A DNA stretch of 64,000 nt from an uncultured Verrucomicrobiae bacterium (GTDB lineage: Bacteria; Chlamydiota; Chlamydiia; Chlamydiales; Rhabdochlamydiaceae): positions 160,001 to 224,000 of the forward strand of contig CAWFUG010000011.1 in NCBI GenBank assembly GCA_963818965.1, written 5' to 3'. The notes beneath the pieces were generated by a model. It saw only the letters and a list, made by a program, of their open reading frames with translations. It searched no databases and was not told the origin of the DNA. Positions within the stretch are counted from its first letter, which is position 1. Every line of letters begins with the position of its first letter. The position numbers were made by a program, and so were the translations under genes. Shown piece by piece: positions 10,669-21,931 of the stretch.

Positions 10669-10721
10669 TGGGGGCGATTGGACTCGAACCAACGAAGACC
10701 GAAGTCGAGGGATTTACAGTC
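10669..10721 (-). repeat. att site: duplicated 3' part of tRNA-Tyr including the anticodon loop
   Basis: TGGGGGCGATTGGACTCGAACCAACGAAGACCGAAGTCGAGGGATTTACAGTC is identical to 21763-21815. Confidence 0.95.
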
Positions 10722-10835
10722 AGTAGGAATCCAACATCCACACACACGCGCCAACACTTATCAACCTACAATACAACGGGTTATGTTTAGTCCACAGTGG
10801 TTAGTTGTTGAATAAAATTGTTTAAAATAGAGACT

Positions 10836-10857
10836 TGCTGTCCCATCTGTGTCCCAT
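10836..10857 (+). promoter_or_regulatory. putative integrase arm-type binding sites (paired GTCCCAT)
   Basis: TGCTGTCCCATCTGTGTCCCAT is 21/22 identical to 21680-21701. Confidence 0.7.
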
Positions 10858-10870
10858 TGATTATGTTCCA

Positions 10871-11578
10871 TCACAGACTACCGCCACCATCCACGCAAAG
10901 AGTTTGCCCAGTGATGAACCCTGCATCCTCAGAAAGCAAAAACTCGATTGCTGCGGCCACTTCCTTGGGTTTTCCTACTCGGCCCATTGGGATGCGTGCT
11001 AGCAACTCCTTTTCTGCCTCGCTACCAGCAGGGCGGATTGCACGAAACATAACGGTTTCGATAGGACCAGGGGCTACTGCATTAACGGTAATACCTAGTG
11101 GGGCTAATTCAAGAGCCCATACGCGTGTACAACCAATGAGAGCACTTTTCGCAGCTGCGTAACTTGTCCTTCCGGGAACCCCAAAAATCGCTCTAGAGGC
11201 AAGATTGACTATGCGCCCCCAATTGCGATCCTTCATTCTACCAACCAATCCTTGGGTCATTTGAACTGCTGTACGAACATTGATATCATACAGATCTCTC
11301 AAGGAGGCAAGGTCAATGGATCCCAAAGGTTGAGGTCCGCCAGCTCCTACATTATTCACTAGGGCATCCACATGGTAGCGATCTAGAAGTAGCGCAATAA
11401 CACGCTCTGTTTCCTCTTCACTGCTCAAATCGCAAGAGAGGAATTGTCCTGGAAATACCTCTTCCGGTTCTGCGCGCGCAATTCCTATCACGTCGTAACC
11501 CACATTCGCCAGACGTTGGCTTGTAGCCAACCCAATCCCTTTTGAAGCTCCCGTGATGACAACCGTTTTCTTCCCCAT
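10871..11578 (-). CDS. SDR-family oxidoreductase (element cargo)
   Basis: TGASKGIG, NNVG, YAAAK, VAPGPIET. Confidence 0.92.
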   Translation of the reverse strand: MGKKTVVITGASKGIGLATSQRLANVGYDVIGIARAEPEEVFPGQFLSCDLSSEEETERVIALLLDRYHVDALVNNVGAGGPQPLGSIDLASLRDLYDINVRTAVQMTQGLVGRMKDRNWGRIVNLASRAIFGVPGRTSYAAAKSALIGCTRVWALELAPLGITVNAVAPGPIETVMFRAIRPAGSEAEKELLARIPMGRVGKPKEVAAAIEFLLSEDAGFITGQTLCVDGGGSL

Positions 11579-11715
11579 ACAGCCTCTTATCCTTCTCTAT
11601 TTCCCTGATATTGCAAATCTTACATTTCTGAATGTTAAAAATGGAAGATCCTCTAATTATCCCACAGACCATGGGACACATTTAATTGGCGAAAATTCAC
11701 CTACATGCATAAAAG

Positions 11716-12441
11716 TCATGTCATGCGAAGATCAACGGCTTCAATTTTTTCTTCCACCAATTGACCTTGAAGAACCTGCACTCGATAAGCTGCACCCTGA
11801 GCATTTGCTTTGACGACCTTTTCCAACTTTCCATCCAAATAGTGCAATGCAACATGGTCATCAGCTGCAATTCCACTTGCCATGCCTTCTTTGATCATTC
11901 TGTGATAAGCTGGCCGTCTTTCAACCTCACCATCATAATGTGGGCAATGGCTACCCGACAAAAACCCCAAACATTTTAGAGGAGTTAGGAGGCCGGAAAT
12001 AGAATCTGTCACGCCTTCCTCAAACCAACATAATCCACCTGCACTGATTCCACCTAAAACAATACCCTGACTCCAGGCCTTCTTTAGGTAGACATCTAAC
12101 TTCCATTCCTTCCATAAGGCAAGCATGCTTTTGGTATTGCCTCCCCCTACGTAGATGGCATCATGCTCCAAAAGGTAAGATTCAAGATCAGCTGTTGGAG
12201 GATCAAATAAAGAAAGGTGAGACGGCTTACACTCCAATGAACCAAAGGCTCGATAGAAATCTACGATATATTTTAATGACTCACCGCTTGCCGTGGGAAT
12301 AAAGCAAATGCGGGGGCATTTGGTATGAGTTTGTTCGAGGAAATACTTCTCAATCAGTAAATTAGAAGGGATGTATGAACCGTATTTTGAAAATCCACCA
12401 CCACCTTGAATGATGATCTGCTTCTTCAATTCGTTCTCCAT
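11716..12441 (-). CDS. peptidase E (S51 family) (element cargo)
   Basis: FIPTASG, IYVGGGNT, GISAGG nucleophile, CPHY. Confidence 0.88.
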   Translation of the reverse strand: MENELKKQIIIQGGGGFSKYGSYIPSNLLIEKYFLEQTHTKCPRICFIPTASGESLKYIVDFYRAFGSLECKPSHLSLFDPPTADLESYLLEHDAIYVGGGNTKSMLALWKEWKLDVYLKKAWSQGIVLGGISAGGLCWFEEGVTDSISGLLTPLKCLGFLSGSHCPHYDGEVERRPAYHRMIKEGMASGIAADDHVALHYLDGKLEKVVKANAQGAAYRVQVLQGQLVEEKIEAVDLRMT

Positions 12442-12648
12442 TTTGTAAATTTCTCCATAACTACTTATCCCCTTTCCGAAATAGTCTAACAGGCTGCTAG
12501 AGTATTTCGTATCTCCAGATCTCTGTTGTCTCTAAAAATCTTTAGCACAGAGACTGCCCAAGGGCGCGAAAAAAGTCAACCTGTTGAATACTGCTATCCG
12601 ATTCAGTGTCCTAGCAAACGCTCCCTTCTTTTAAAAACACAGGCTTAA

Positions 12649-12670
12649 GAAGGTTCAAAAGGTTCAGAAG
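12649..12670 (+). repeat. iteron-like 22-mer, copy 1 (intergenic)
   Basis: GAAGGTTCAAAAGGTTCAGAAG is 20/22 identical to 16874-16895. Confidence 0.6.
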
Positions 12671-12716
12671 TTTTAGGGGGCTTACCGCAAGATCATGGGT
12701 TGCCTTGCCGAACAAA

Positions 12717-12764
12717 TCAATCGCCGCGGAAGTCCCTGATTAAGGATTTTAAGGCGGCGATTGA
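12717..12764. other. GC-rich hairpin (terminator of the ankyrin gene or primase-recognition site)
   Basis: 11-bp stem TCAATCGCCGC/GCGGCGATTGA. Confidence 0.5.
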
Positions 12765-12794
12765 CCAGGTAGGATGAGGTTTATGGAGCTACTT

Positions 12795-13682
12795 TTAACC
12801 CCTAGCACCATGTTGTAGAAGATATTGAACGATTTCTATTTTGCCAATTGCTTGATTAAGGGGTGTGGCATGTTCAACACCTTGACGATTTATTGATTTA
12901 TTAATACTTGCTCCCGATTCTACCAAGAATTTAACTAGGGAAAGATTCTCCAAATGTACAGCTAATATCAACGGGGTGCTTTGCTCCTTTCCACCCGATT
13001 TTTGGACTTCATTTATATCTGCCCCTTTTTTCAGAAGGAGTTCTAACATTGTCATATCTCTTGTAGTGTGAGCGACACAAAGAGCCTTCATTAGTGGGCT
13101 TTCATAATTATTGGAATAATGTATATCGGCTCCCTTATCGATCATTAAAAGAGCAACGTCTGTCCACTGCTGGTCGTTTTGACGCCGTCGGAACTCCATC
13201 GCTTGTAAGAGAGCTGTATGATCTCCATATTTATTTTTTATAATAACATTTACGTCCGCACCATGCTTGACCAATAATTTTGCCGCAATAGGGTCTTTCA
13301 TATTGAACGCTAGTTCCAATAAACTCATGTTATTCCATCTTGTAGTTGGATGAGGATTAGCACCATGAGACAGCAAAAGCCCAACTGTATCTGTGGATTT
13401 ATTCAGAATTGCCATTGTCAAAGGTGTCATTCCATTTTCATCGGGATAATCAACGTTCACCCCATGCGCAAGTAAGAAAGTAATAACTTCTGGCGCGTTT
13501 TCTAAAATTGCCTTGTGAATAAGTGTATTGGGATCAATTTCTTTTCGCACCACCTGCCATTGCAATGCACCTATTTCGTATTGATATGACAACGTGGTAT
13601 CGGATGTTTTATGGCAGGCATTTAAAGAAAAAGCAAATACAGAAAGGGCAGTAATCAATGATAATTTCAACTTCACAAACAC
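12795..13682 (-). CDS. ankyrin-repeat protein with signal peptide (element cargo)
   Basis: Several TPL..A and LL..GAD(V/I)N repeats; N-terminal hydrophobic leader ending LNAC. Confidence 0.9.
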   Translation of the reverse strand: MFVKLKLSLITALSVFAFSLNACHKTSDTTLSYQYEIGALQWQVVRKEIDPNTLIHKAILENAPEVITFLLAHGVNVDYPDENGMTPLTMAILNKSTDTVGLLLSHGANPHPTTRWNNMSLLELAFNMKDPIAAKLLVKHGADVNVIIKNKYGDHTALLQAMEFRRRQNDQQWTDVALLMIDKGADIHYSNNYESPLMKALCVAHTTRDMTMLELLLKKGADINEVQKSGGKEQSTPLILAVHLENLSLVKFLVESGASINKSINRQGVEHATPLNQAIGKIEIVQYLLQHGARG

Positions 13683-13768
13683 CTCTTAAAATTTAGGGTT
13701 AAAGTGAATGAATTATGCAATTCAATGTATTTCAATTCTTCAAAAATAATTCCTTTGCATCAAACAAG

Positions 13769-14011
13769 CTACACAAGATTGTTCTTCGAGTTCTTCAAAA
13801 TCATTCGAACTTTTTTTATTTCAGCAAGTGTCTCAGCTGAGTAAAATCCGTGCTTCGTGTTCGCCTCTTTTATGCGGGATCGTCCTACTTCGGTTTTTGC
13901 GCCCGTACATTTCCCTCCATGAAGCCGGCATCTTCCGTTGGCCATTGCTGGCTGCCGACACGGTTTATACTGATTAGTTCTGGCTTTAGCTCTGCATTTT
14001 GTGACGAACAT
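13769..14011 (-). CDS. HGGxSTG-domain protein
   Basis: CRAKAR..PCRQPAMANGRCRLHGGKCTGAKT..KHGFYS. Confidence 0.85.
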   Translation of the reverse strand: MFVTKCRAKARTNQYKPCRQPAMANGRCRLHGGKCTGAKTEVGRSRIKEANTKHGFYSAETLAEIKKVRMILKNSKNNLV

Positions 14012-14045
14012 GGGTTATCTCCCGTTTTTATTGATTACCCCCCCC

Positions 14046-14636
14046 TTATACTGGAAATTGTCCGACTACCGCCTTCGCTTGATCTGACAAATTTATCTGC
14101 TGATGTTGGACTATAACACGTTGCTCTCCTCCTCTACGGTATCGACTCAGAGCTTCTATAGTTTCATTGTGCAGTCTGAGTAATTTCGTCGCTAAATTCC
14201 CATAGCATTGCATATGCTCAAGGCATTTTGCGTCTTCCAACTTACTTAAATACGACATCCCCTGAGAATAAAGAGCCGTAGCTTTCGTTATCAAGCTAGC
14301 TTCTACTGAGTCCTTTGGTTTCATGTCGTTCAGTGATTGTAGTATTACATTCAGCTTGTCTTCAGAAGAAGAAGTCGATGTTTTAACCGCGATAACCCCT
14401 CTTGTGAGGATATGCCGAGCAAGATCGAAATCTTTAACTCCAACCACAAAATTAAGTGGATTTATTCCATTTTCCTGAATGCTAGGGTCCATAACATAAC
14501 GGTCTTTTCCTTGCTCATCCTTCCAGAGTTTGATAGGAGTTGATTCTATAGTTGGTGGCTCTATCTTCGGAGGACCCGCCTGTTTTTGCATCTCGACAAC
14601 CTTCTCGACCGTTGACTTTTCCTTTTTCTTTCCCAT
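14046..14636 (-). CDS. conserved hypothetical protein of a type often found beside HGGxSTG genes
   Basis: PKDSVEA..; C-terminal EALSRYRRGGEQRVIVQH..QAKAVVG; starts 2 bp after the helicase stop. Confidence 0.65.
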   Translation of the reverse strand: MGKKKEKSTVEKVVEMQKQAGPPKIEPPTIESTPIKLWKDEQGKDRYVMDPSIQENGINPLNFVVGVKDFDLARHILTRGVIAVKTSTSSSEDKLNVILQSLNDMKPKDSVEASLITKATALYSQGMSYLSKLEDAKCLEHMQCYGNLATKLLRLHNETIEALSRYRRGGEQRVIVQHQQINLSDQAKAVVGQFPV

Positions 14637-14638
14637 TT

Positions 14639-16330
14639 TTAATCTCTCTTAACTGTACTTATTATTTTAGCAGCTTGAATCTTTGTAATACCTGGATCAA
14701 ATGTAATACCGTGCGAGCTCAGACAATACCGCTGCTTATCAGTCGCAGGCTCATTGATTTTTCTATCGAGCATGACTGATGCTTCTCCGCTGGTGATTCC
14801 CGTGTCAAATTGAATCCCGAACTTCTGCAACGTCTCGACCTGCTTGCAAGTCGCTGGTTTCGCTCTCCAAAATGCATCTTTTCTAGCCCATACCCCACGT
14901 GTTGTTTGACCTCTTGCCCAATCCTCAGCTATTCCCATGGCGTAATTAAGAGGAAGCCGCCTATCACTTAACGGGACCGTAAGACCATCGGAATGAGCAA
15001 ACACGCGAAATCCGCACTTATCTCTCCTAACCCAAACATCTCGCTGAGTCGTCAAACTCAAGTGCCACGAATTTCCGACAGGAACCCACGCAAATTCAGA
15101 TCTTCCGAAGAATTCTATGTCTTCCACTCGTTCGGCAACAACCCTAACGCTATAAGCAGCCTTATTCACCACCATCTCACGTTCATCAAGGGGATCACAC
15201 TGCTCACAAAACTCATCGCGCTCTAGCTCATCTAATGCAGAAATAGCACCATCGAGCGTATTTTGGAAGGAACATAGGTTATGACGGGTCGAATTGTCGC
15301 AAAAATCCAGAATCAGACAGTCTTTTTTAAGCGGATGGATCCGAGTCCCTCGACCGACCATTTGCGTGTAGAGAGCTTCCGATGCAGTAGGACGTGCGAG
15401 AATTACGCAATCGATCCCCTCCTCATCGAACCCCTCTGTCAGCACTGAGCAATTCGTCAAAACCCTAATTTTACCATCGGAGAATTCTTGTAGTACTCGC
15501 CTTCGACCTTCTTTAGGCATATTACCATAAACAGGCGCAGAATCAATCCCGCTGCGCGCAAAGGCATCAGCGAGATCTTTTGTGTGCTGCACATCGGCGC
15601 AGAACACAATCACCTTTCCACGACCTCCACCAAACTCCTGGAACTTCTCCACGATCAGAGAATTTCGTTCGGGTGTATTAATCGCCATCGAGAGCTGTCC
15701 AGAAATAAAGTCGCCTCTGGACATACTCACACCCCTCAGATCGGTTTTTGTTATAATCCTTCGCCCAACTAATGGACTGAGATAACCCGCTCCAATCATT
15801 GTGCTAATGGAACGTTTGAAGGTAATTTCTTCAAAAATGGAGCCCAGCCCGACGCCATCCCCTCGTCTTGGCGTCGCCGTAACGCCTATCAGGAGTTTTT
15901 GCGGATTCCCATTCATAAACCCAAGTTCTCCTACTATTTTTCGATAACTTGGAGCAGCTGCGTGATGCGCTTCGTCGATTATCAGAAGATCAAACCCCTG
16001 TTTCGCAATAGACTGAAGACGTCTGTCTCTGCACACTGTTTGAATCGATCCAACGACGACCTGAGCGTTGACCTCATCCAATAATGCTCTAACAATCCCG
16101 ACTGAAGCCTCCGGCCAAATCATTTTTAGTTTATCTCGCGCCTGTGTGAGAAGCTCATCACGATGAGCGATGATTAGCGTTCGGCATTGGAATTGCTTAG
16201 CGGCGAGAGAAAAGATTACCGTCTTTCCTGTTCCCGTCGGCATTGAGACGAGTTGGCGCGTTACCCCTTTTGAGCGGCGATCGAGGACGGCGTCGAGGCA
16301 TTCAGTTTGGTATGGTCTAGGGGTTATCAT
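14639..16330 (-). CDS. SF2 DEAD/DEAH-box helicase (ResIII/Irc3-like)
   Basis: PRPYQ, MPTGTGKT, IDEAHH, TATP, LTEGFD, QMVGRGTR. Confidence 0.92.
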   Translation of the reverse strand: MITPRPYQTECLDAVLDRRSKGVTRQLVSMPTGTGKTVIFSLAAKQFQCRTLIIAHRDELLTQARDKLKMIWPEASVGIVRALLDEVNAQVVVGSIQTVCRDRRLQSIAKQGFDLLIIDEAHHAAAPSYRKIVGELGFMNGNPQKLLIGVTATPRRGDGVGLGSIFEEITFKRSISTMIGAGYLSPLVGRRIITKTDLRGVSMSRGDFISGQLSMAINTPERNSLIVEKFQEFGGGRGKVIVFCADVQHTKDLADAFARSGIDSAPVYGNMPKEGRRRVLQEFSDGKIRVLTNCSVLTEGFDEEGIDCVILARPTASEALYTQMVGRGTRIHPLKKDCLILDFCDNSTRHNLCSFQNTLDGAISALDELERDEFCEQCDPLDEREMVVNKAAYSVRVVAERVEDIEFFGRSEFAWVPVGNSWHLSLTTQRDVWVRRDKCGFRVFAHSDGLTVPLSDRRLPLNYAMGIAEDWARGQTTRGVWARKDAFWRAKPATCKQVETLQKFGIQFDTGITSGEASVMLDRKINEPATDKQRYCLSSHGITFDPGITKIQAAKIISTVKRD

Positions 16331-18759
16331 TTCTGCCCCCGGAGGTTAGGATGAATGTGAATTTTCTTTGATGGGTGGCCTCCAGTTTTCAGCACTTCGA
16401 CTTTAACCCAACCAAACTCCTCCAAGATCTTAATAGCCTTTTCTACTTTTTCAGAATTATCAAGGTGCATCCAATGCTTCCCGTGATAAACATCGCGAAG
16501 AGAGAATCCATTGATTAAGACGCCACTCCTGATGCGAGCCAAAAGAGCCCTGGCAGAATCCATACTGGGATCTTCCCGAGAAGCATAAAGCCGCCTAGCA
16601 TGCGTTTCTAAGTACCGGCACCATTGAATAGCTTGGTGAATAGATGGAACGTCGACCGCTTCCAGGCGGTTCCCCCTCCCTAGTGTTTCAACAAGGTATG
16701 CAATGAGAGCTAACGTCGGCACCAAAGACCTATATTTTGCTAAATGACTCTCCAATGAAGGCTCTAAGTCTCCGCTAAGCAATCGTTGCTCAAGGGACGT
16801 TCGCCATTCATCGAACAAGACCTGCGCCTCAGGAGAAAATCGAACCTTTAATGTTTCAAAAGACCCGTCAGAGGAGGGTTCAAAAGGTTCAAAAGAATCA
16901 ATCTGATGAAAAACTCTGATTGCCTGCTCGCGCGCCTCCAGATCAGGGGAGCGATCAACATTCTTCCACTGCTTTTGAACATCGGGCCAGACAAGAAGCT
17001 GGAAGCGCTGCAAAAAACCGTCATCACCCGCGCCTCCGGACATGGTCTGGTTAACATACGACCCCAAAGGACCCGGCTGGATACCGCCTATGATCGACAC
17101 GCAAAGAGCTGGTATATTCAAAGTTCCCCTTCCGATGCGATCGACGGTATAAGGGCCATCTCCATTCCAAGATTCGAGAAAAAAGGCCCTGTCTCCTTCG
17201 CGGCCATATTTATCAAAACTTTTAAACCAACCGACTAATTCGTCTCGATGAATAAGAATGCCTTGAGGATTTTTAAGCAATATTTCCCCAATTTTCTCAA
17301 CAGTAGCATCCTCTGTCTTGTATCTTTTAGGAACAGGTTCGACTAACTCATCAAGCGGCTCTAAAATAGGCATTTCAGACCCCTTCGCAGCTTTCTTCAT
17401 CTGTTCTTTTTGAATGTTTTTCTTTGCATCAACCCACATTACCTGTTGCTCATACCCCTTCATATCCTCGCGGTGCTTCTGGAGAGCCTTTTCAGCAAGT
17501 TTTTCTAAGGGTTTCACGATCTCTGCAATTGCTGGAGATTTTAATAGAGAGGGCTTACCCACCACCGCTCCCCAAAGATTTGGAATCACGAGCCAATCAT
17601 CCTGGGCCTTGGGGTGAATGCCAATCTTTCTCCCTATCAAAGATCCAAGCACCACCATACATGTAGACGCCAGGAAGTCAGGAGGAACCTGCATCCTTTC
17701 CGCAATATCCATAATCCATGGGCGTAAAGCTTCTGGGAGTAATGCTTCCTGAAATGGAGCAACAGGGAGGAATTCCTTCTTGAGCTCTAGTGGCTCCTCC
17801 CACTTTTCTTCTAGGCCTAAAAAACTACGTAAGTCATCAATCCCTTTTTCTTCGCAATGGGAATGTTGACACTTAAAACCACTCCCCTTGAACCCATTGG
17901 TGTACGGCTCAAAATAGGCAGTTCCTTCATCTCCCGTCGTATGAGTATTACGCCAAGGACATAAAATATCCCATCCCCCTAGTTTATTGGGGAGGGGGAG
18001 CTTCAACATATTGAGATTCCTCAACTCTTGCAGGATCGGATCAAGCGAATGGTCTCTGCGGTCTTTCTCTTGAGTTGCCCGTTTCAATAGATCAATTTCA
18101 AAGGCTTTTAAAAAATCTGAAGCGCTGTACGATAGTGCATCTGAATGCTCTATGACCTTAACCAAACAAGGTTCGTCCTTTCGATGAAAAAATCCCGGCA
18201 ATCGCATTACTCGGGGAAGATCATGAACAGCGGGATCGGCACTGAATCGCTGTATCAAAGCCTTCTGAACAGGAGTAAACTTCTCTAGGGTCAACCCCTC
18301 CACTAACCAATAAGCATGGTAACGTCCTGGACTTGATTCGACAATGATATGAGGAGATAATGGGCCCGATTGTACGGGGGCAATCGGCGCACCATCCAAA
18401 TCCACAAAAACGGCACGCACCTTGACGATGTTTTTCGCCTGCCTTCCCTTAAGATCTGTCGCATTGACCGTGTAGAAAACCCCCGCGCCACGTTCATTCA
18501 AATCGTTAAGAATTTCACGATGTTCCTCAAGGGTCCCATGCAAAATTCGCACAAGTTCAGGATTTTTCCTCTTGTTTATGTCGTCAAATGTTTGAAAGGT
18601 ATGCCGCTCATCCCCCGCGATCCATTTCAAAAATTGAAACGCATCAGGGTTGCTGATTTTGTGTAAAGCCGTTATATTTGGAACATGAGGATGTTCTTCC
18701 TTTGATGGAGCTGATTCCCGCCAAGGTGCAGCTCCTTCGTTTTTTTCAAGTTCTCTCAT
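16327..18759 (-). CDS. RepB-type (AEP) primase + Cys/His Zn-binding segment + DUF3987/YfjI helicase-like fusion
   Basis: FVDLDG, VESSPGRYHAYW, DLPRVMRLPG; CPWRNTH..CQHSHC; GKPSLLKSPA, DATVEK, RDEL, DRIGRG, GGIQP, DGFLQRF; AGGAGG RBS. Confidence 0.88.
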   Translation of the reverse strand: MRELEKNEGAAPWRESAPSKEEHPHVPNITALHKISNPDAFQFLKWIAGDERHTFQTFDDINKRKNPELVRILHGTLEEHREILNDLNERGAGVFYTVNATDLKGRQAKNIVKVRAVFVDLDGAPIAPVQSGPLSPHIIVESSPGRYHAYWLVEGLTLEKFTPVQKALIQRFSADPAVHDLPRVMRLPGFFHRKDEPCLVKVIEHSDALSYSASDFLKAFEIDLLKRATQEKDRRDHSLDPILQELRNLNMLKLPLPNKLGGWDILCPWRNTHTTGDEGTAYFEPYTNGFKGSGFKCQHSHCEEKGIDDLRSFLGLEEKWEEPLELKKEFLPVAPFQEALLPEALRPWIMDIAERMQVPPDFLASTCMVVLGSLIGRKIGIHPKAQDDWLVIPNLWGAVVGKPSLLKSPAIAEIVKPLEKLAEKALQKHREDMKGYEQQVMWVDAKKNIQKEQMKKAAKGSEMPILEPLDELVEPVPKRYKTEDATVEKIGEILLKNPQGILIHRDELVGWFKSFDKYGREGDRAFFLESWNGDGPYTVDRIGRGTLNIPALCVSIIGGIQPGPLGSYVNQTMSGGAGDDGFLQRFQLLVWPDVQKQWKNVDRSPDLEAREQAIRVFHQIDSFEPFEPSSDGSFETLKVRFSPEAQVLFDEWRTSLEQRLLSGDLEPSLESHLAKYRSLVPTLALIAYLVETLGRGNRLEAVDVPSIHQAIQWCRYLETHARRLYASREDPSMDSARALLARIRSGVLINGFSLRDVYHGKHWMHLDNSEKVEKAIKILEEFGWVKVEVLKTGGHPSKKIHIHPNLRGQK
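16874..16895 (+). repeat. iteron-like 22-mer, copy 2 (inside the primase-helicase gene, encodes FEPFEP)
   Basis: GAGGGTTCAAAAGGTTCAAAAG is the exact reverse complement of 20537-20558. Confidence 0.7.
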
Positions 18760-18970
18760 GTTGACCTCCTCTTTTATTCTCCTCTAACCATGAAAAGAAA
18801 AGTCGTGGCGATATTAAAAGTTTTCGTTTTCCAAGCCTGCGCACAAAACAGTCGGCCCCGTTAAATTTGGAGTTAAATAAAATCCATCTCAAGCTACCTA
18901 CACTTACAATAGACGAATACTGCTGGCAAAAATCCTTAATCGTCAAAAACTGCGCTTCATCAAAAGACAT
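18746..18970 (-). CDS. small DNA-binding protein (excisionase/AlpA-like)
   Basis: FLTIKDFC..SLRWILF..RRLGKRKLLISP..FFSWLE winged-helix pattern; GAGG RBS before ATG at 18970; overlaps the primase start. Confidence 0.7.
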   Translation of the reverse strand: MSFDEAQFLTIKDFCQQYSSIVSVGSLRWILFNSKFNGADCFVRRLGKRKLLISPRLFFSWLEENKRGGQHERT

Positions 18971-19140
18971 AATCAACCTCACTTTAGTTAAAACTATCTG
19001 AAGCAATATGCCCCAGACCTTGTTCACTATTTACATCTTAACTAATTAATTATCAACAACTTTAGAATATTTTTTAATAACACTTAAACCAAACTCTTCC
19101 CCCAAGAAAATTACACTAGATTTTCAAAAATGGGGTCGAA

Positions 19141-20289
19141 TTAAGAAGTTGCCTTTGATTTCCGAAATGCTAGAATAGCGTCCAAAACGCCACTTTCTCT
19201 CCATCGCCTCGACTGCGATTTTACGACTTCTCGGGGTATCGAAGACAACAGTGGATCCGCGCGCTTGCTTCGCATTTTGTGCAAAATAGCGTTAAGAATC
19301 GCGAGCTGGTCATGTGTGGGAGGACGTCCTCTACTCTTTTTAAGCAATGGGAGCTCTTGACACATCCGCCCCCACTCTTCCGGAGTAACAGATTCCAAAT
19401 GCGGCTCACCTAATGATTTCCTGACTACTTCCGCTCTAATAGGAGGACGGAGTGACAGCGAAGACACGGATCTGATACCCGCTTTTTTTGCGGCTGCTCT
19501 TATGTAGCTCTCCACTTGGACTGACGACAAAGGAGCACCATGAGTGTTCGAAAAAACAAAAATGGAATCATCTTTTATCTGCTGACAAAGGGATTTCCAA
19601 AGACGCGGAGAGAGGAATGTAGTGAGCATGTGAGTTCCGGTAGAGATAGACCTACTTAAGCTAATCCAATTCTGGCCATCAGTAGAGGTCGGCGCTACGT
19701 CTGATATTTGTAATCGAACAACCTCTTCCAAAGTGACATACCCACCGCCTTGGGGAAAAAAAACATTGATTTCTCGAATAATGTCACAAATGAGAGCGAC
19801 CTGAGAAGAGATCTTCTTTAACTCTTTCCGAAAACTTCTATATTCGGCATCGGAAAAGGGCTTCTTTTTCCTTGCCTCATCTTCAAAACGACGAATTGAC
19901 CTAGTTCTTCTTTTCACAGCCGTTTGCACGGGCTCTATACTCCCATCTTGGGTTACATGAGGCGTGCAAACGGGCCCTATAACCCAAGGCAAATATATAT
20001 CAAATTTTCTGCAAAGCGCTTTTAATTTTTCAGCTTCCATATTCCACGGTAAAATACATGCTACTATCCGACTACATTGCTTTTCCCATGCCAGTGTACA
20101 ATCTCTCGTCTCAAGCTCTGGAACTTTTTCCTCTCCCAGAATCTTAACCCATTGACGCCTCAACTTGCCTGAAACAGGGTCATCTGCACCTTTGGGAACA
20201 AAGAACATGGGGACGCCGACCCACATTCCCTGATAATATGCTACCCCAAAGGCTTGAATGAATTCTGATTTTAGATCGTTTTCAGACAC
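19141..20289 (-). CDS. degenerate tyrosine-recombinase-like protein with a C-terminal IS5-type HTH-like segment
   Basis: EEVVRLQISDV, VFSNTHGAPLS..AAAKKAGIRSVSSLSLR (HxLR altered, no LGH/Tyr); tail TPEEW..GRPP..ILNAILH..RRWRESGV. Confidence 0.55.
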   Translation of the reverse strand: MSENDLKSEFIQAFGVAYYQGMWVGVPMFFVPKGADDPVSGKLRRQWVKILGEEKVPELETRDCTLAWEKQCSRIVACILPWNMEAEKLKALCRKFDIYLPWVIGPVCTPHVTQDGSIEPVQTAVKRRTRSIRRFEDEARKKKPFSDAEYRSFRKELKKISSQVALICDIIREINVFFPQGGGYVTLEEVVRLQISDVAPTSTDGQNWISLSRSISTGTHMLTTFLSPRLWKSLCQQIKDDSIFVFSNTHGAPLSSVQVESYIRAAAKKAGIRSVSSLSLRPPIRAEVVRKSLGEPHLESVTPEEWGRMCQELPLLKKSRGRPPTHDQLAILNAILHKMRSKRADPLLSSIPREVVKSQSRRWRESGVLDAILAFRKSKATS

Positions 20290-20296
20290 GGGTCAC

Positions 20297-21436
20297 CTAT
20301 CCTATAAAGTTTTGGTTCATTCGATCGATCACAGCATGTTTGTGGGTATCACTTAAATGAGCGTAACGTTTCACCATTACAAGAGTTTTGTGTCCCAAAA
20401 TTTCTGAAATTTCTGCTAAGGAAGCACCACTCATAGCAAGGTAGCTTGCAGCACAATGGCGGAGATCATGAAACCTAAAATTTTCTATCTGAGCTTTTTT
20501 CAATGCACTATCCCAGGCGCTCCTCAATTGAGTGGGCTTTTGAACCTTTTGAACCCTCTCTAAGTCGCACTTTTGCAAACTAAAATGAGAATGAAGTTTG
20601 TCAGAACTTTGACTACCATTTTGAGATTTTACTTTAGGGAAGAGAAGCTGAGTATCGATATGACGTCGCTTTTCTAACTGGGATAATAATTCCAAAGCCT
20701 GACCCGCAACCGGAACAGCGCGACGCTCTCCATTTTTTGTTTCCTGCAAAATGATTCTCTTCCGATTCAGATCAACGTCAGCCCAAGTCAAATTGAGGAT
20801 TTCGCTATAGCGCATGCCAGTTGAAATGGCCAGAACGACCACAGGATAAAGAGCTGGATTCGTGCTCTCCCTACAGGCTTGAAGGAGACGTTCTCTTTCA
20901 TATTCATCCAAGAACCGCACCCGTCCACGAGATTCCTTGAGTTTAGAGACCTTCCTCATCGGAGAATCTTCCAACCATCCCCATTCTTTTACTGCAATCG
21001 ACAGAGCATGACTAAGCGCACTTAGGTATCTCACAACAGTTGCGGGAGAACGTTGAGTACCGCGATACGTTACCCCACCGAGCAATTCATCTCTCTTTTC
21101 CCCGATCAACGCGGGTGAAATATCCGCCAACAAATAGCTGCCGAGATGTTCTTTCCACCATAAAAGCTGAGCGGTTTGTTTTTTTTGGCTTTTTTTCTTT
21201 TTTGGAAGGACGTCTCTAATGTACCTATCGATCAAATCCCCTAAAGTATGCTTTTTTGCCTCTGTAGTCTTGAAATGTCGCCCATCTCTGATTGCGGCTT
21301 CCGTTTGTTGCGCCCATCGTTTAGCATCAGCACTGCGAGCAAATGTCGCAGTCTCAGGAGGATGCCCCTTCAGACGAATTTTAACCCTGTATTGATCCTT
21401 ACCATCTTTAGTCTTACGCTTTTCGATTGCTGCCAT
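20297..21436 (-). CDS. tyrosine integrase
   Basis: TGMRYSEI, FHDLRH, LGHK, RYAH all intact; ATG 21436 with GGAG RBS preferred over 21583. Confidence 0.95.
   Translation of the reverse strand: MAAIEKRKTKDGKDQYRVKIRLKGHPPETATFARSADAKRWAQQTEAAIRDGRHFKTTEAKKHTLGDLIDRYIRDVLPKKKKSQKKQTAQLLWWKEHLGSYLLADISPALIGEKRDELLGGVTYRGTQRSPATVVRYLSALSHALSIAVKEWGWLEDSPMRKVSKLKESRGRVRFLDEYERERLLQACRESTNPALYPVVVLAISTGMRYSEILNLTWADVDLNRKRIILQETKNGERRAVPVAGQALELLSQLEKRRHIDTQLLFPKVKSQNGSQSSDKLHSHFSLQKCDLERVQKVQKPTQLRSAWDSALKKAQIENFRFHDLRHCAASYLAMSGASLAEISEILGHKTLVMVKRYAHLSDTHKHAVIDRMNQNFIG
20537..20558 (-). repeat. iteron-like 22-mer, copy 3 (inside the integrase, encodes RVQKVQK)
   Basis: CTTTTGAACCTTTTGAACCCTC. 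Confidence 0.7.
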
Positions 21437-21572
21437 AAGAACGCTCCAATTTTTCAAAAGCTGAAATATACGAAAGCCGCCAATATTAGACAACAAGGGA
21501 TATACATTCACCTGCATAACACAATCTAAATCATTGACTGACAACGGATATTCAGTGGTCTTAATCCGGAAA

Positions 21573-21590
21573 GGGACACTCATGGGACAC
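21573..21590 (-). promoter_or_regulatory. putative arm-type sites, inverted pair
   Basis: GGGACACTCATGGGACAC; reverse complement GTGTCCCATGAGTGTCCC. Confidence 0.6.
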
Positions 21591-21679
21591 TAAAAGCAAA
21601 AATCACACGCAGAGATGGAGCAAAGCTTCACCACAGTTACTTTGCGTGAATGAGAAAAGCGTTGGAATAAGTGAAATAG

Positions 21680-21701
21680 TGCTGTCCCATCTGCGTCCCA
21701 T
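21680..21701 (+). promoter_or_regulatory. putative arm-type sites
   Basis: TGCTGTCCCATCTGCGTCCCAT, matches 10836-10857. Confidence 0.7.
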
Positions 21702-21762
21702 CTAGGGATTTGAAAGGGTAAAAACGAAGACGATTTTTGAGCGAGATTTTGTCTATGGAATT

Positions 21763-21844
21763 TGGGGGCGATTGGACTCGAACCAACGAAGACCGAAGTC
21801 GAGGGATTTACAGTCCCTTGCAATTGCCACTATGCGACACCCCC
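21763..21844 (-). tRNA. tRNA-Tyr(GTA), integration target
   Basis: GGGGGTGTCGCATAGTGGC..GACTGTAAATC..GGTTCGAGTCC..CGCCCCCA cloverleaf with long variable arm. Confidence 0.97.
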
Positions 21845-21859
21845 AGGAAGAGGAAAGGA

Positions 21860-21931
21860 TGCTGGCGAAAGGACTTGAACCCTCAACCGTCCGCTTACAA
21901 GGCGGATGCTCTACCATTGAGCTACACCAGC
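21860..21931 (-). tRNA. tRNA-Thr(TGT)
   Basis: GCTGGTGTAGCTCAATGGTAGAGC..CTTGTAA..GGTTCAAGTCC..CCAGCA. Confidence 0.97.

Follow-up and report, generated by a model that had tools for sequence, protein, structure and literature searches.

A tRNA-Tyr-integrated island with its own replication genes in an uncultured chlamydial genome, a candidate helper-dependent element

The 64,000-nucleotide stretch analysed here (the window; contig CAWFUG010000011.1 of assembly GCA_963818965.1, from an uncultured member of the Rhabdochlamydiaceae) carries an intact-looking, bounded, site-specific integrative island of about 11 kb, which lies between two copies of the 3' part of a tRNA-Tyr gene. Judging from its homologues, the island belongs to a chlamydial family of replicative tRNA islands, and it is mobile on an evolutionary scale. 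With moderate confidence, we read it as a recently integrated, self-replicating 'hitcher' of the tycheposon, type C PICI (phage-inducible chromosomal island) or PICMI (phage-inducible chromosomal minimalist island) kind, which has no transfer functions of its own and would depend on a helper phage.

Boundaries, recombination genes and replicon

The source assembly (labelled G000) comprises 2,236,974 bp in 12 contigs and is 87.85% complete. The perfect 53-bp att duplication reported by a first-pass annotation of the window was confirmed by reading both copies, since positions 10669-10721 and 21763-21815 are identical in 53 of 53 bases at a spacing of 11,094 bp. A repeat finder returned an 81-nt repeat of 86% identity at the same spacing, with the perfect 53-bp core within it. 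The 53-mer occurs exactly twice in the whole assembly, the next-best blastn-short matches being 12-21 nt long. The core covers tRNA-Tyr from its anticodon loop through its 3' end. According to ARAGORN, the right copy (attL core) is the 3' 53 nt of tRNA-Tyr(GTA), located at 21762..21845 on the minus strand and adjoined by a tRNA-Thr at 21860-21931 on the same strand; the left copy (10669..10721) is the attR core. Among the 35 tRNA genes of the assembly, the att-bearing gene is the sole tRNA-Tyr, and the island therefore lies in a gene that is essential and present once, whose 3' half it restores. The repeats enclose ten minus-strand genes, all with open reading frames (ORFs); nine had been listed before, and the one that had been missed lies between the integrase gene and a small Xis-like gene.

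The island possesses a tyrosine integrase gene (ORF of 428 aa, 20297..21583, minus strand), whose product matches PF00589 (7.6e-32, covering positions 2-171 of the 172 in the profile) and phrog_1 (9.3e-68). Residues R258, K283, H372, R375, H398 and Y407 are found in what we take to be the usual catalytic boxes, in agreement with the complete catalytic set noticed earlier. Homologues of the integrase align only from M50, and the true start is therefore probably at 21436. Separated from the integrase gene by 7 bp is the previously missed gene (19141..20289, minus strand), which encodes a 382-aa protein with a weak PF00589 match (7.8e-4, profile positions 40-133 of 172 only) followed by a DUF4096 helix-turn-helix domain (7.3e-7). 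It looks like a recombinase core that has no catalytic C-terminus and would be catalytically dead.

A further 113 bp on lies an ORF of 93 aa (18746..19027, minus strand; conserved over about 73 aa from 18967), putatively a Xis-like small DNA-binding protein. It has no match in Pfam, PHROG or NCBIfam, its profile finds nothing at E <= 1 among PDB sequences, and one of six homologues matches HTH_17 (E 0.012). An AlphaFold model built from a six-sequence alignment is a small winged helix (pLDDT 81.5), for which Foldseek against the PDB gave a best E of 0.25, all matches being generic winged-helix regulators. When the model was compared with all representative structures by VIA, where Z below 8 can mean a common arrangement, the top match was the putative excisionase 2kvv (Z 7.4, rmsd 3.2, 66 residues aligned), and further matches were the PICI protein 6hn7 (6.4), the GIsul2 excisionase (6.1), Tn916 Xis (5.4), Pukovnik Xis (5.3) and RdfS (5.2). 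The predicted fold is thus closest to excisionases and MerR-type proteins (Z 7.4-5). The label given at first pass is plausible on position, size and modelled fold, which agree with it, and a family match is absent.

Downstream of this gene lies the replication block. The replicase (810 aa, 16327..18759, minus strand) is an archaeo-eukaryotic primase (AEP) domain of the RepB_primase family (PF16793, 3.3e-14) fused to a DUF3987 helicase domain of the YfjI type (PF13148, 1.7e-80). It is followed by a superfamily 2 (SF2; DEAD/ResIII) DNA helicase of 563 aa (14639..16330, minus strand; ResIII 1.5e-30, Helicase_C 1.2e-17, phrog_16 1.4e-100), by a conserved helical protein of 196 aa, orf196 (14046..14636, minus strand), and by an HGGxSTG-domain protein of 80 aa (13769..14011, minus strand; NF041373 4.7e-11, 42.2 bits against a cut-off of 29). 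The Xis-like and primase genes overlap by 14 bp and the primase and helicase genes by 4 bp, while 2 bp separate the helicase gene from orf196 and 34 bp separate orf196 from the HGGxSTG gene, which bears out the co-oriented, tightly coupled run described at first pass. The DUF3987 half matches 26 plasmid records, 21 of them typed as non-mobilizable and most of them small, plasmids of 10-23 kb included, which supports a plasmid-type replicase. Scans for promoters (22 against a shuffled expectation of 16.6 +/- 4.4) and terminators (11 against 11.2) did not rise above expectation. As a side observation, tandem pairs of GGTTCAAAA-like 9-mers, which could be iterons or chance, are present at 12650-12670, in the gap between the ankyrin and S51 peptidase genes described below, and at 16877-16895, inside the primase gene.

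As stated at first pass for capsid, large terminase, relaxase and type IV secretion system (T4SS) genes, the Pfam and PHROG scans of the ten island proteins found no capsid, portal, large terminase (TerL), tail, lysis, relaxase or T4SS match. The coupling protein PF02534 and the relaxase PF03432 were not found in the assembly either; since the assembly is 87.85% complete, such negatives are not proof of absence.

Relatives of the island and tailed-phage genes in Chlamydiota

The primase was found in five of 41 genomes searched (G000 included); of the 24 others in the same family, two had it. G001, the only other genome of the same genus, gave no match. Its right flank is conserved at 69-71% identity in DNA and 69-79% in the flank proteins, and its tRNA-Tyr gene is followed by an unrelated 207-aa ORF, with no integrase. 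Vertical presence at this locus in all relatives, together with a lack of excision reads, had been named at first pass as what would speak against mobility; the site being empty in a genome of the same genus, the island is not vertically fixed.

Full-length primase homologues of 58-73% identity are numerous in a large protein database, and two carry source names of Chlamydiales or Waddliaceae metagenome-assembled genomes (MAGs); the source names of the closest ones agree with the chlamydial host assumed at first pass. A single-sequence search with the primase found no relative in a collection of genome contigs and one distant match (29% identity) among viral contigs. With a profile of 33 homologues, the best 80 of 563 related stretches in a species-genome collection were kept, and twelve loci (L030-L040 and L084) were analysed further. 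The labels of these loci are of the Chlamydiota type, apart from that of L030 ('uncultured bacterium'), a locus in a genome from the island's own family.

Three of the twelve loci, L030, L031 and L036, have the entire left arm in common with the island, with the 382-aa gene directly after the integrase gene in each. Identities to the island proteins are 76.5% (integrase), 38% (382-aa protein), 73% (Xis-like) and 62% (primase) for L030, 74.8%, 38%, 83% and 67% for L031, and 70%, 35%, 81% and about 59-68% for L036, in which the primase is in three pieces. L030 is integrated in tRNA-Tyr between copies of a 74-bp repeat (97%) about 10.0 kb apart, and its flanks are the same as those of the island, with a gene of the metallo-beta-lactamase fold to one side and, to the other, PP-loop and SSF genes. 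L036 is also in tRNA-Tyr (53-bp repeat, 98%, about 10.7 kb apart), and the 54-bp repeat of L031 likewise has its start in an anticodon loop, that of a sequence resembling tRNA-Leu(UAA) which ARAGORN does not call. L031 carries SDR, YCII, nucleoside deoxyribosyltransferase and toxin-antitoxin genes as cargo, and L036 an S41 peptidase. The integrase is more similar to that of L030 (76.5%) than are all five flanking host proteins compared (40-68%), and about as similar to that of a genome from another family (L031, G223), which fits horizontal spread.

The pairing of the integrase with the 382-aa protein recurs more widely. Near-full-length matches to the 382-aa protein are present in seven of 400 sampled chlamydial genomes from five GTDB families, and at four of five further loci the integrase gene lies directly upstream, the fifth locus being too short to tell. 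On the metagenome contig L169, beside a tRNA-Met, an integrase gene is followed by primase, SF2 helicase, orf196 and HGGxSTG genes in the same order as in the island. A search of other Chlamydiota genomes for the gene order had been proposed at first pass, and the family does recur in the phylum.

The family relatives also have the putative cis sites of recombination in common. Two 22-bp repeats, each a pair of 11-bp GGGAC units spaced 11 bp, lie at 10836..10857 (about 115 bp inside attR) and at 21680..21701 (about 60 bp inside attL) and are 95% identical, and an inverted pair of GGGAC units lies at 21573..21590, upstream of the probable integrase start. The motif TGTCCCAT occurs five times in the window, always inside the island and four times near its ends, against 1.33 occurrences expected; none of 100 shuffles reached five. 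The three GGGAC pairs are found at the same relative places in L030, L031 and L036 amid diverged sequence, as would be expected of arm-type sites in an attP region, and we predict the pairs to be such sites. Their conservation speaks for selection on the recombination apparatus.

Hints of packaging come from L030, the closest sibling. Downstream of its primase gene, genes for a 232-aa protein of unknown function, a 143-aa GP3_package protein, an 86-aa ORF and a 505-aa TerL replace the helicase, orf196 and HGGxSTG genes of the island. The GP3_package protein is a P22-type small terminase (TerS; 32.3 bits against a cut-off of 29.4), and the TerL matches phrog_2 (1.4e-27) and phrog_2472 (3e-80). 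TerL of this type is present in 63 of 401 sampled chlamydial genomes, many copies being intact at 53-73% identity and many broken by stop codons.

The TerS/TerL pair is carried on tRNA-bounded islands, which differ in replicase and cargo, in five genomes with long contigs (loci L130-L141), namely a 10.5-kb island in tRNA-Met with a 54-bp perfect repeat (G023), a 12.5-kb island in tRNA-Ser (G079), a 15.2-kb island in tRNA-Thr with RepB_primase plus DUF3987 and a Kdp potassium system (G252), a 17.8-kb island in tRNA-Tyr whose integrase is 60% identical to that of the island described here (G245), and a 19.7-kb island in tRNA-Met with type I restriction-modification and Shedu genes (G171). In G171, a tandem island of 8.25 kb carries DUF3987, orf196 (43%) and HGGxSTG (64%) genes together with AbiE. 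No capsid, portal or tail match was found on the five TerS/TerL islands or on the tandem island.

Virion genes do occur elsewhere in the sampled genomes. An HK97-type capsid protein (PF05065) was found in five of the 401, and the P22-type portal protein PF16510 in 18, in 16 of them above the cut-off. On contig C46 of G054 (L251), a distant TerL (41-43%) is followed by such a portal protein (2e-146), and at three loci (L264, G029:C16; L265, G297:C1; L269, G266:C19) the portal gene is followed by scaffold, major head, adaptor and tail-fibre genes. Major head matches in portal loci reach 4.7e-64 (phrog_283) and 1.6e-37 (phrog_1357). To judge from these matches, contigs binned as chlamydial hold regions that resemble tailed prophages and have a related terminase; these regions are the obvious candidates for helpers.

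The HGGxSTG protein provides a second possible connection to packaging. Its residues 20-60, a 41-residue stretch, match phrog_9231 'terminase small subunit' (7.5e-7), as does the homologue in L036 (2.7e-5). In a tblastn search of 50,697 phage records it had three matches, and in two of these the domain is in a gene at the TerS position. In Pasteurella phage Pm86, it is N-terminal in ORF53 (196 aa), whose end is 3 bp short of the gene annotated as large terminase, and in Bacillus phage Flasso it is at the N-terminus of the product of the first gene past the annotated pac site. The domain was also found in 18 longer proteins (149-501 aa), none with a Pfam domain or a name. The strict motif is present in three of 95 other loci scanned; a fourth regex match, at 3922 of L140, lies upstream of the G245 island and was rejected as chance. 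We infer a candidate role for the HGGxSTG protein in DNA recognition or packaging specificity.

Its neighbour orf196 has no match in Pfam, PHROG or NCBIfam, and its AlphaFold2 model (pLDDT 72.4) has no Foldseek match at E <= 0.001 in PDB or BFVD. A tblastn search of the same phage records found nothing, and in the ESM Atlas orf196 falls in unnamed clusters only. Homologues were identified in L031, L032, L033, L035, L036, L084, G171 and L169, and orf196 always pairs with an HGGxSTG gene downstream of the primase gene. A second subfamily (L032, L034 and L037, with the shorter L035 and L040) has a serine recombinase and a different helicase. Its gene order is a 95-aa ORF, primase, an orf196-like gene (137 aa), an HGGxSTG-like gene (79 aa), a Xis/MerR-like gene (70 aa), a phrog_12156 helicase and a large serine recombinase.

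Cargo, composition and further islands

The remaining three genes of the island are separated by wider gaps than those of the replication block. They encode an ankyrin-repeat protein of 295 aa with a hydrophobic N-terminus (12795..13682, minus strand; Ank_2 1e-32), a Peptidase_S51 family protein of 241 aa (11716..12441, minus strand; PF03575 7e-50) and an SDR-family oxidoreductase of 235 aa (10871..11578, minus strand; PF13561 3.9e-51; NF005753 358 bits against a cut-off of 310). The S51 protein had been called peptidase E; the family assignment stands, and the scores against the PepE and cyanophycinase models of NCBIfam are far under their cut-offs. A paralogue of the SDR (90% aa and 86% nt identity) lies 56 kb away on the same contig (G000:C11:237455-238159), and one of the ankyrin protein (59% aa) is on contig G000:C8, beside a decayed related island. 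The cargo is, by these sequence comparisons, of chlamydial origin. PADLOC returned generic helicase and ankyrin matches on the island and no known defence system. The GC content is 44.4% in the island and 47.5% in the genome (6th percentile of 11-kb windows), and 13% of genome windows exceed the island in tetranucleotide distance. This composition, close to that of the host, fits an element that circulates among chlamydiae.

Further islands and remnants were observed in the same genome and family. The decayed relative on contig C8 (L250, G000:C8:119835-125317) is at a tRNA-Met with a 51-bp repeat (96%) 2.9 kb apart, and it retains pieces of an integrase gene and of an HGGxSTG gene (51% over 39 aa), with the ankyrin paralogue just beyond. 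A second island of about 11 kb (L249, G000:C9:264662-275691) is in a tRNA-Met with a 55-bp repeat (87%); its integrase is 49% identical to that of the tRNA-Tyr island, it is without a primase, and it carries genes for a PD-(D/E)XK nuclease, an SNF2 helicase, an N6_N4 DNA methylase, an insertion sequence (IS) DDE transposase and an AbiEi/nucleotidyltransferase, a cargo that looks defence-like. On contig C15 of G002 (L007), about 1 kb away from a tRNA-Tyr, part of a primase gene (residues 541-678, 39-46% identity) is directly followed by the start of an SDR gene (69% over 68 aa), where the contig ends; it has the look of a decayed island of this type, cargo included. In G009, of the same family (G009:C23:1659-35375; L143, L144), the 3' part of tRNA-Tyr is repeated over 61 bp (88.5%) at a distance of 33.6 kb, with a weak integrase-like match (25%) near the distal copy, and this may be a larger, different element at the same att site.

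Candidate life cycle, rival explanations and known systems

According to the reading that we prefer, the integrase would recombine the core that starts in the anticodon loop of tRNA-Tyr, assisted by proteins that bind the GGGAC pairs of the arm sites. The direction of recombination would depend on the excisionase-fold protein, and the dead recombinase-like/DUF4096 protein might serve as an accessory DNA binder. Excision would yield a circle of 11,094 bp, to be replicated by the AEP-primase/DUF3987 protein and the SF2 helicase, which are encoded in one coupled operon headed by the Xis-like gene. Spread to other chlamydiae would most likely occur inside particles of a tailed phage that acts as helper and does not reside in the genome, and the HGGxSTG protein, perhaps with its 196-aa partner, would be the DNA-recognition or packaging-specificity factor. 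The ankyrin protein, the S51 peptidase and the SDR would be passengers of chlamydial origin. The link to phages receives indirect support from the TerS/TerL pair in siblings, the HGGxSTG domain at the TerS position in phages and the regions with P22-type portal genes.

Several points weigh against this explanation. Excision, autonomous replication, dependence on a helper and the role of the HGGxSTG protein are steps that we infer. No island-type TerL, PF05065, PF04860 or PF16510 was found in the G000 assembly, no repressor or helper-sensing gene was recognised among the island genes, and the contigs that bear portal genes come from MAGs, so that their chlamydial origin depends on binning. No exact terminal overlap of at least 15 nt, as a circular form might leave, was found among loci L030-L248, a negative that says little because most of these loci are contig pieces. 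The 80-aa HGGxSTG protein is the domain alone and gives no BLASTP alignment to the TerS of L030, hhalign of orf196 with the TerS-position proteins of Pm86 and Flasso and with the 232-aa protein of L030 gave a probability of 0.1, and the trio of primase, orf196 and HGGxSTG genes also accompanies the serine-recombinase elements L032, L034 and L037. A replication-accessory role for the two small proteins is therefore a real alternative. In the first-pass proposal of a self-replicating island that needs a helper, the bounded element, the plasmid-type replicon and the lack of transfer and virion genes hold good, while the helper has no counterpart found in G000.

A broader version of the same idea, possible but doubtful in our view, is that the island and its TerS/TerL-bearing siblings make up a phylum-wide satellite family of environmental Chlamydiota which parasitises tailed phages of the P22-portal type, as yet uncultured, whose hosts are obligate intracellular bacteria, with the HGGxSTG protein as a minimal pac-recognition factor that redirects the terminase of the helper. 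In this version, which we hold just as tentatively on this point, integrase, excision and replicase modules would be swapped between cargo-type and packaging-type members.

The island could also replicate itself and involve no phage, being a cargo shuttle or integrated plasmid that spreads by conjugative mobilisation, vesicles or DNA uptake, with the 196-aa and HGGxSTG proteins serving replication, for example in origin binding or as a loader. A replication module would be expected to stay together across unrelated recombinases, as the trio does, DUF3987 replicases belong typically to small plasmids, conjugative plasmids and islands of the F type are described in Parachlamydiaceae and Simkaniaceae (PMC5010888, PMC7846284), and cargo tycheposons without packaging genes have been described as well (10.1101/2020.12.28.424599). 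However, PF03432 and PF02534 are absent from the island and from the whole assembly, and the closest sibling, L030, has a complete terminase; we regard this explanation as fairly unlikely. It is distinctly improbable that the island integrated once and is now fixed and immobile, being kept for its cargo or not yet decayed. Its absence from the relative of the same genus, the ten open genes, the intact arm sites and the unselected att copy outside the tRNA gene, which is still identical in all 53 positions, speak against fixation, even though no helper or transfer genes were found in the genome, remnants at tRNA-Met on G000:C8 and tRNA-Tyr in G002 show that related islands decay in chlamydiae, and the composition is near that of the host in GC (44.4% against 47.5%) and tetranucleotides. 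Finally, the integrase, Xis-like and replication genes, followed in siblings by those for TerS/TerL, are ordered as in the early arm of a temperate phage, and portal and head regions with a related TerL exist in the phylum, as they would if the island were what is left of such a phage after loss of its late genes. Yet perfect att sites bound the element at 11.1 kb, no structural or lysis gene fragments are present inside it (Pfam, PHROG), and six direct-repeat-bounded islands of 8-20 kb (L030, G023, G252, G079, G171 and G245) are likewise without virion genes, so that we consider this origin highly improbable.

Among known systems, tycheposons appear, by their described features, to be the closest functional match. 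They are islands of 10-20 kb which target tRNA genes in Prochlorococcus and other marine bacteria, have their own primases and helicases, and use a tyrosine or, rarely, a serine recombinase that leaves partial tRNA repeats; they are either cargo carriers or PICI-like with a packaging gene, have integration and replication modules common to both types, and form tandem arrays and remnants at the same tRNA (10.1101/2020.12.28.424599). Compared by description, the chlamydial islands are alike in the tRNA-targeting recombinase, the partial-tRNA repeats, the replication module, the division into cargo and packaging types, and the tandem islands and same-tRNA remnants. In contrast to the marine hosts of tycheposons, those of the chlamydial family belong to another phylum and are obligate intracellular. 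Its AEP RepB_primase plus DUF3987 replicase is unlike the tycheposon replicase, its packaging siblings carry TerS plus TerL whereas tycheposons are described with terS or the major capsid protein gene alone, and the dead recombinase-like/DUF4096 and HGGxSTG genes are additional in the island.

PICIs are alike in the integrase, a small regulator at the head of a replication operon (AlpA, MerR or Xis-like, for which the 93-aa ORF is the putative counterpart), the primase-replicase (matched by function in RepB_primase plus DUF3987), the size and the chromosomal integration. Their packaging and interference component consists of terS, ppi and rpp. They differ in that the island has no capsid-morphogenesis match and, beyond the 41-residue HGGxSTG stretch that matches phrog_9231, no recognisable terS, ppi or rpp in Pfam and PHROG. 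With three of the five PICI components, the island would count as 'type C' in SatelliteFinder, a three-component class called ambiguous by its authors (PMC10085698), and Chlamydiota go unmentioned in that paper. P4 is alike in outline, being tRNA-integrated and about 11 kb long with an integrase, a small regulator and a large primase-helicase. P4 satellites carry the capsid-size and decoration genes Psu, Delta and Sid and a P4-alpha-type primase. The island has no capsid-size or decoration match in PHROG or Pfam, and its replicase is AEP plus DUF3987, not P4-alpha; seven core components are described for P4-like satellites (PMC10085698). The layout was likened at first pass to that of PICIs and P4-type satellites, but the island is a member of neither group, neither the P4 genes nor the capsid-morphogenesis component of PICIs being found.

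In PICMIs, excision and replication functions (integrase, AlpA and primase) are described as sufficient for a satellite of a tailed phage, and the minimal gene set without capsid-remodelling genes is similar (PMC10803314). They differ in being located next to fis, smaller and, as described, found in Vibrionaceae only, whereas the island is in the tRNA-Tyr of a chlamydial genome and not beside fis, with two helicases and 3 kb of cargo. Capsid-forming PICIs (cfPICIs) are not matched, as the island has no capsid, portal, head-tail adaptor/connector or terL gene of its own, nor are tailed prophages, as capsid, portal, tail and lysis matches are lacking. With relaxase and T4SS unmatched in the island, and PF03432 and PF02534 absent from the 87.85%-complete assembly, it does not correspond to an integrative and conjugative or integrative and mobilizable element.

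Within the phylum, PnaK_GI2 of Protochlamydia naegleriophila is described as an island of 15 kb which lies at tRNA-Thr and encodes a potassium transporter and, putatively, a large terminase (PMC5010888). An island of the same description is present in G252, with a replicase of the RepB_primase plus DUF3987 type like that of the tRNA-Tyr island. In the passages of PMC5010888 that concern it, PnaK_GI2 is presented as a genomic island of one genome, with no replicon, att, family or satellite reading. The characterised chlamydial phages are only small ssDNA Microviridae (PMC5010888), and a putative prophage gene set has been described on two chlamydial plasmids (PMC7846284). Our literature search found no work that treats chlamydial tRNA islands as a family or as satellites (supplements may list island genes), nor anything on HGGxSTG, Chlamydiota phage satellites or DUF3987-integrase-terminase satellites; a search on chlamydial prophage portal proteins and Caudovirales gave nothing relevant among the matches listed. 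The chlamydial family with its particular gene set is new, and the kind of element is known. The suggestion of an undescribed family is accordingly limited to the family level, because single chlamydial tRNA islands with a terminase are in print (PMC5010888) and tycheposons, type C PICIs and PICMIs already represent the kind.

What is understood of gene movement between chlamydiae concerns mostly plasmids (PMC7846284). Islands that integrate into tRNA genes and replicate themselves would, as a family, give these obligate intracellular bacteria a second route of gene exchange, one which would carry host-interaction genes, such as the ankyrin gene, metabolic genes and defence systems. The TerL genes in 63 of 401 genomes, together with terminases beside portal and head genes, point to tailed phages and their parasites in the phylum, and the island in tRNA-Tyr is a clean, intact specimen of the family, with defined att sites, arm sites and a replicon.

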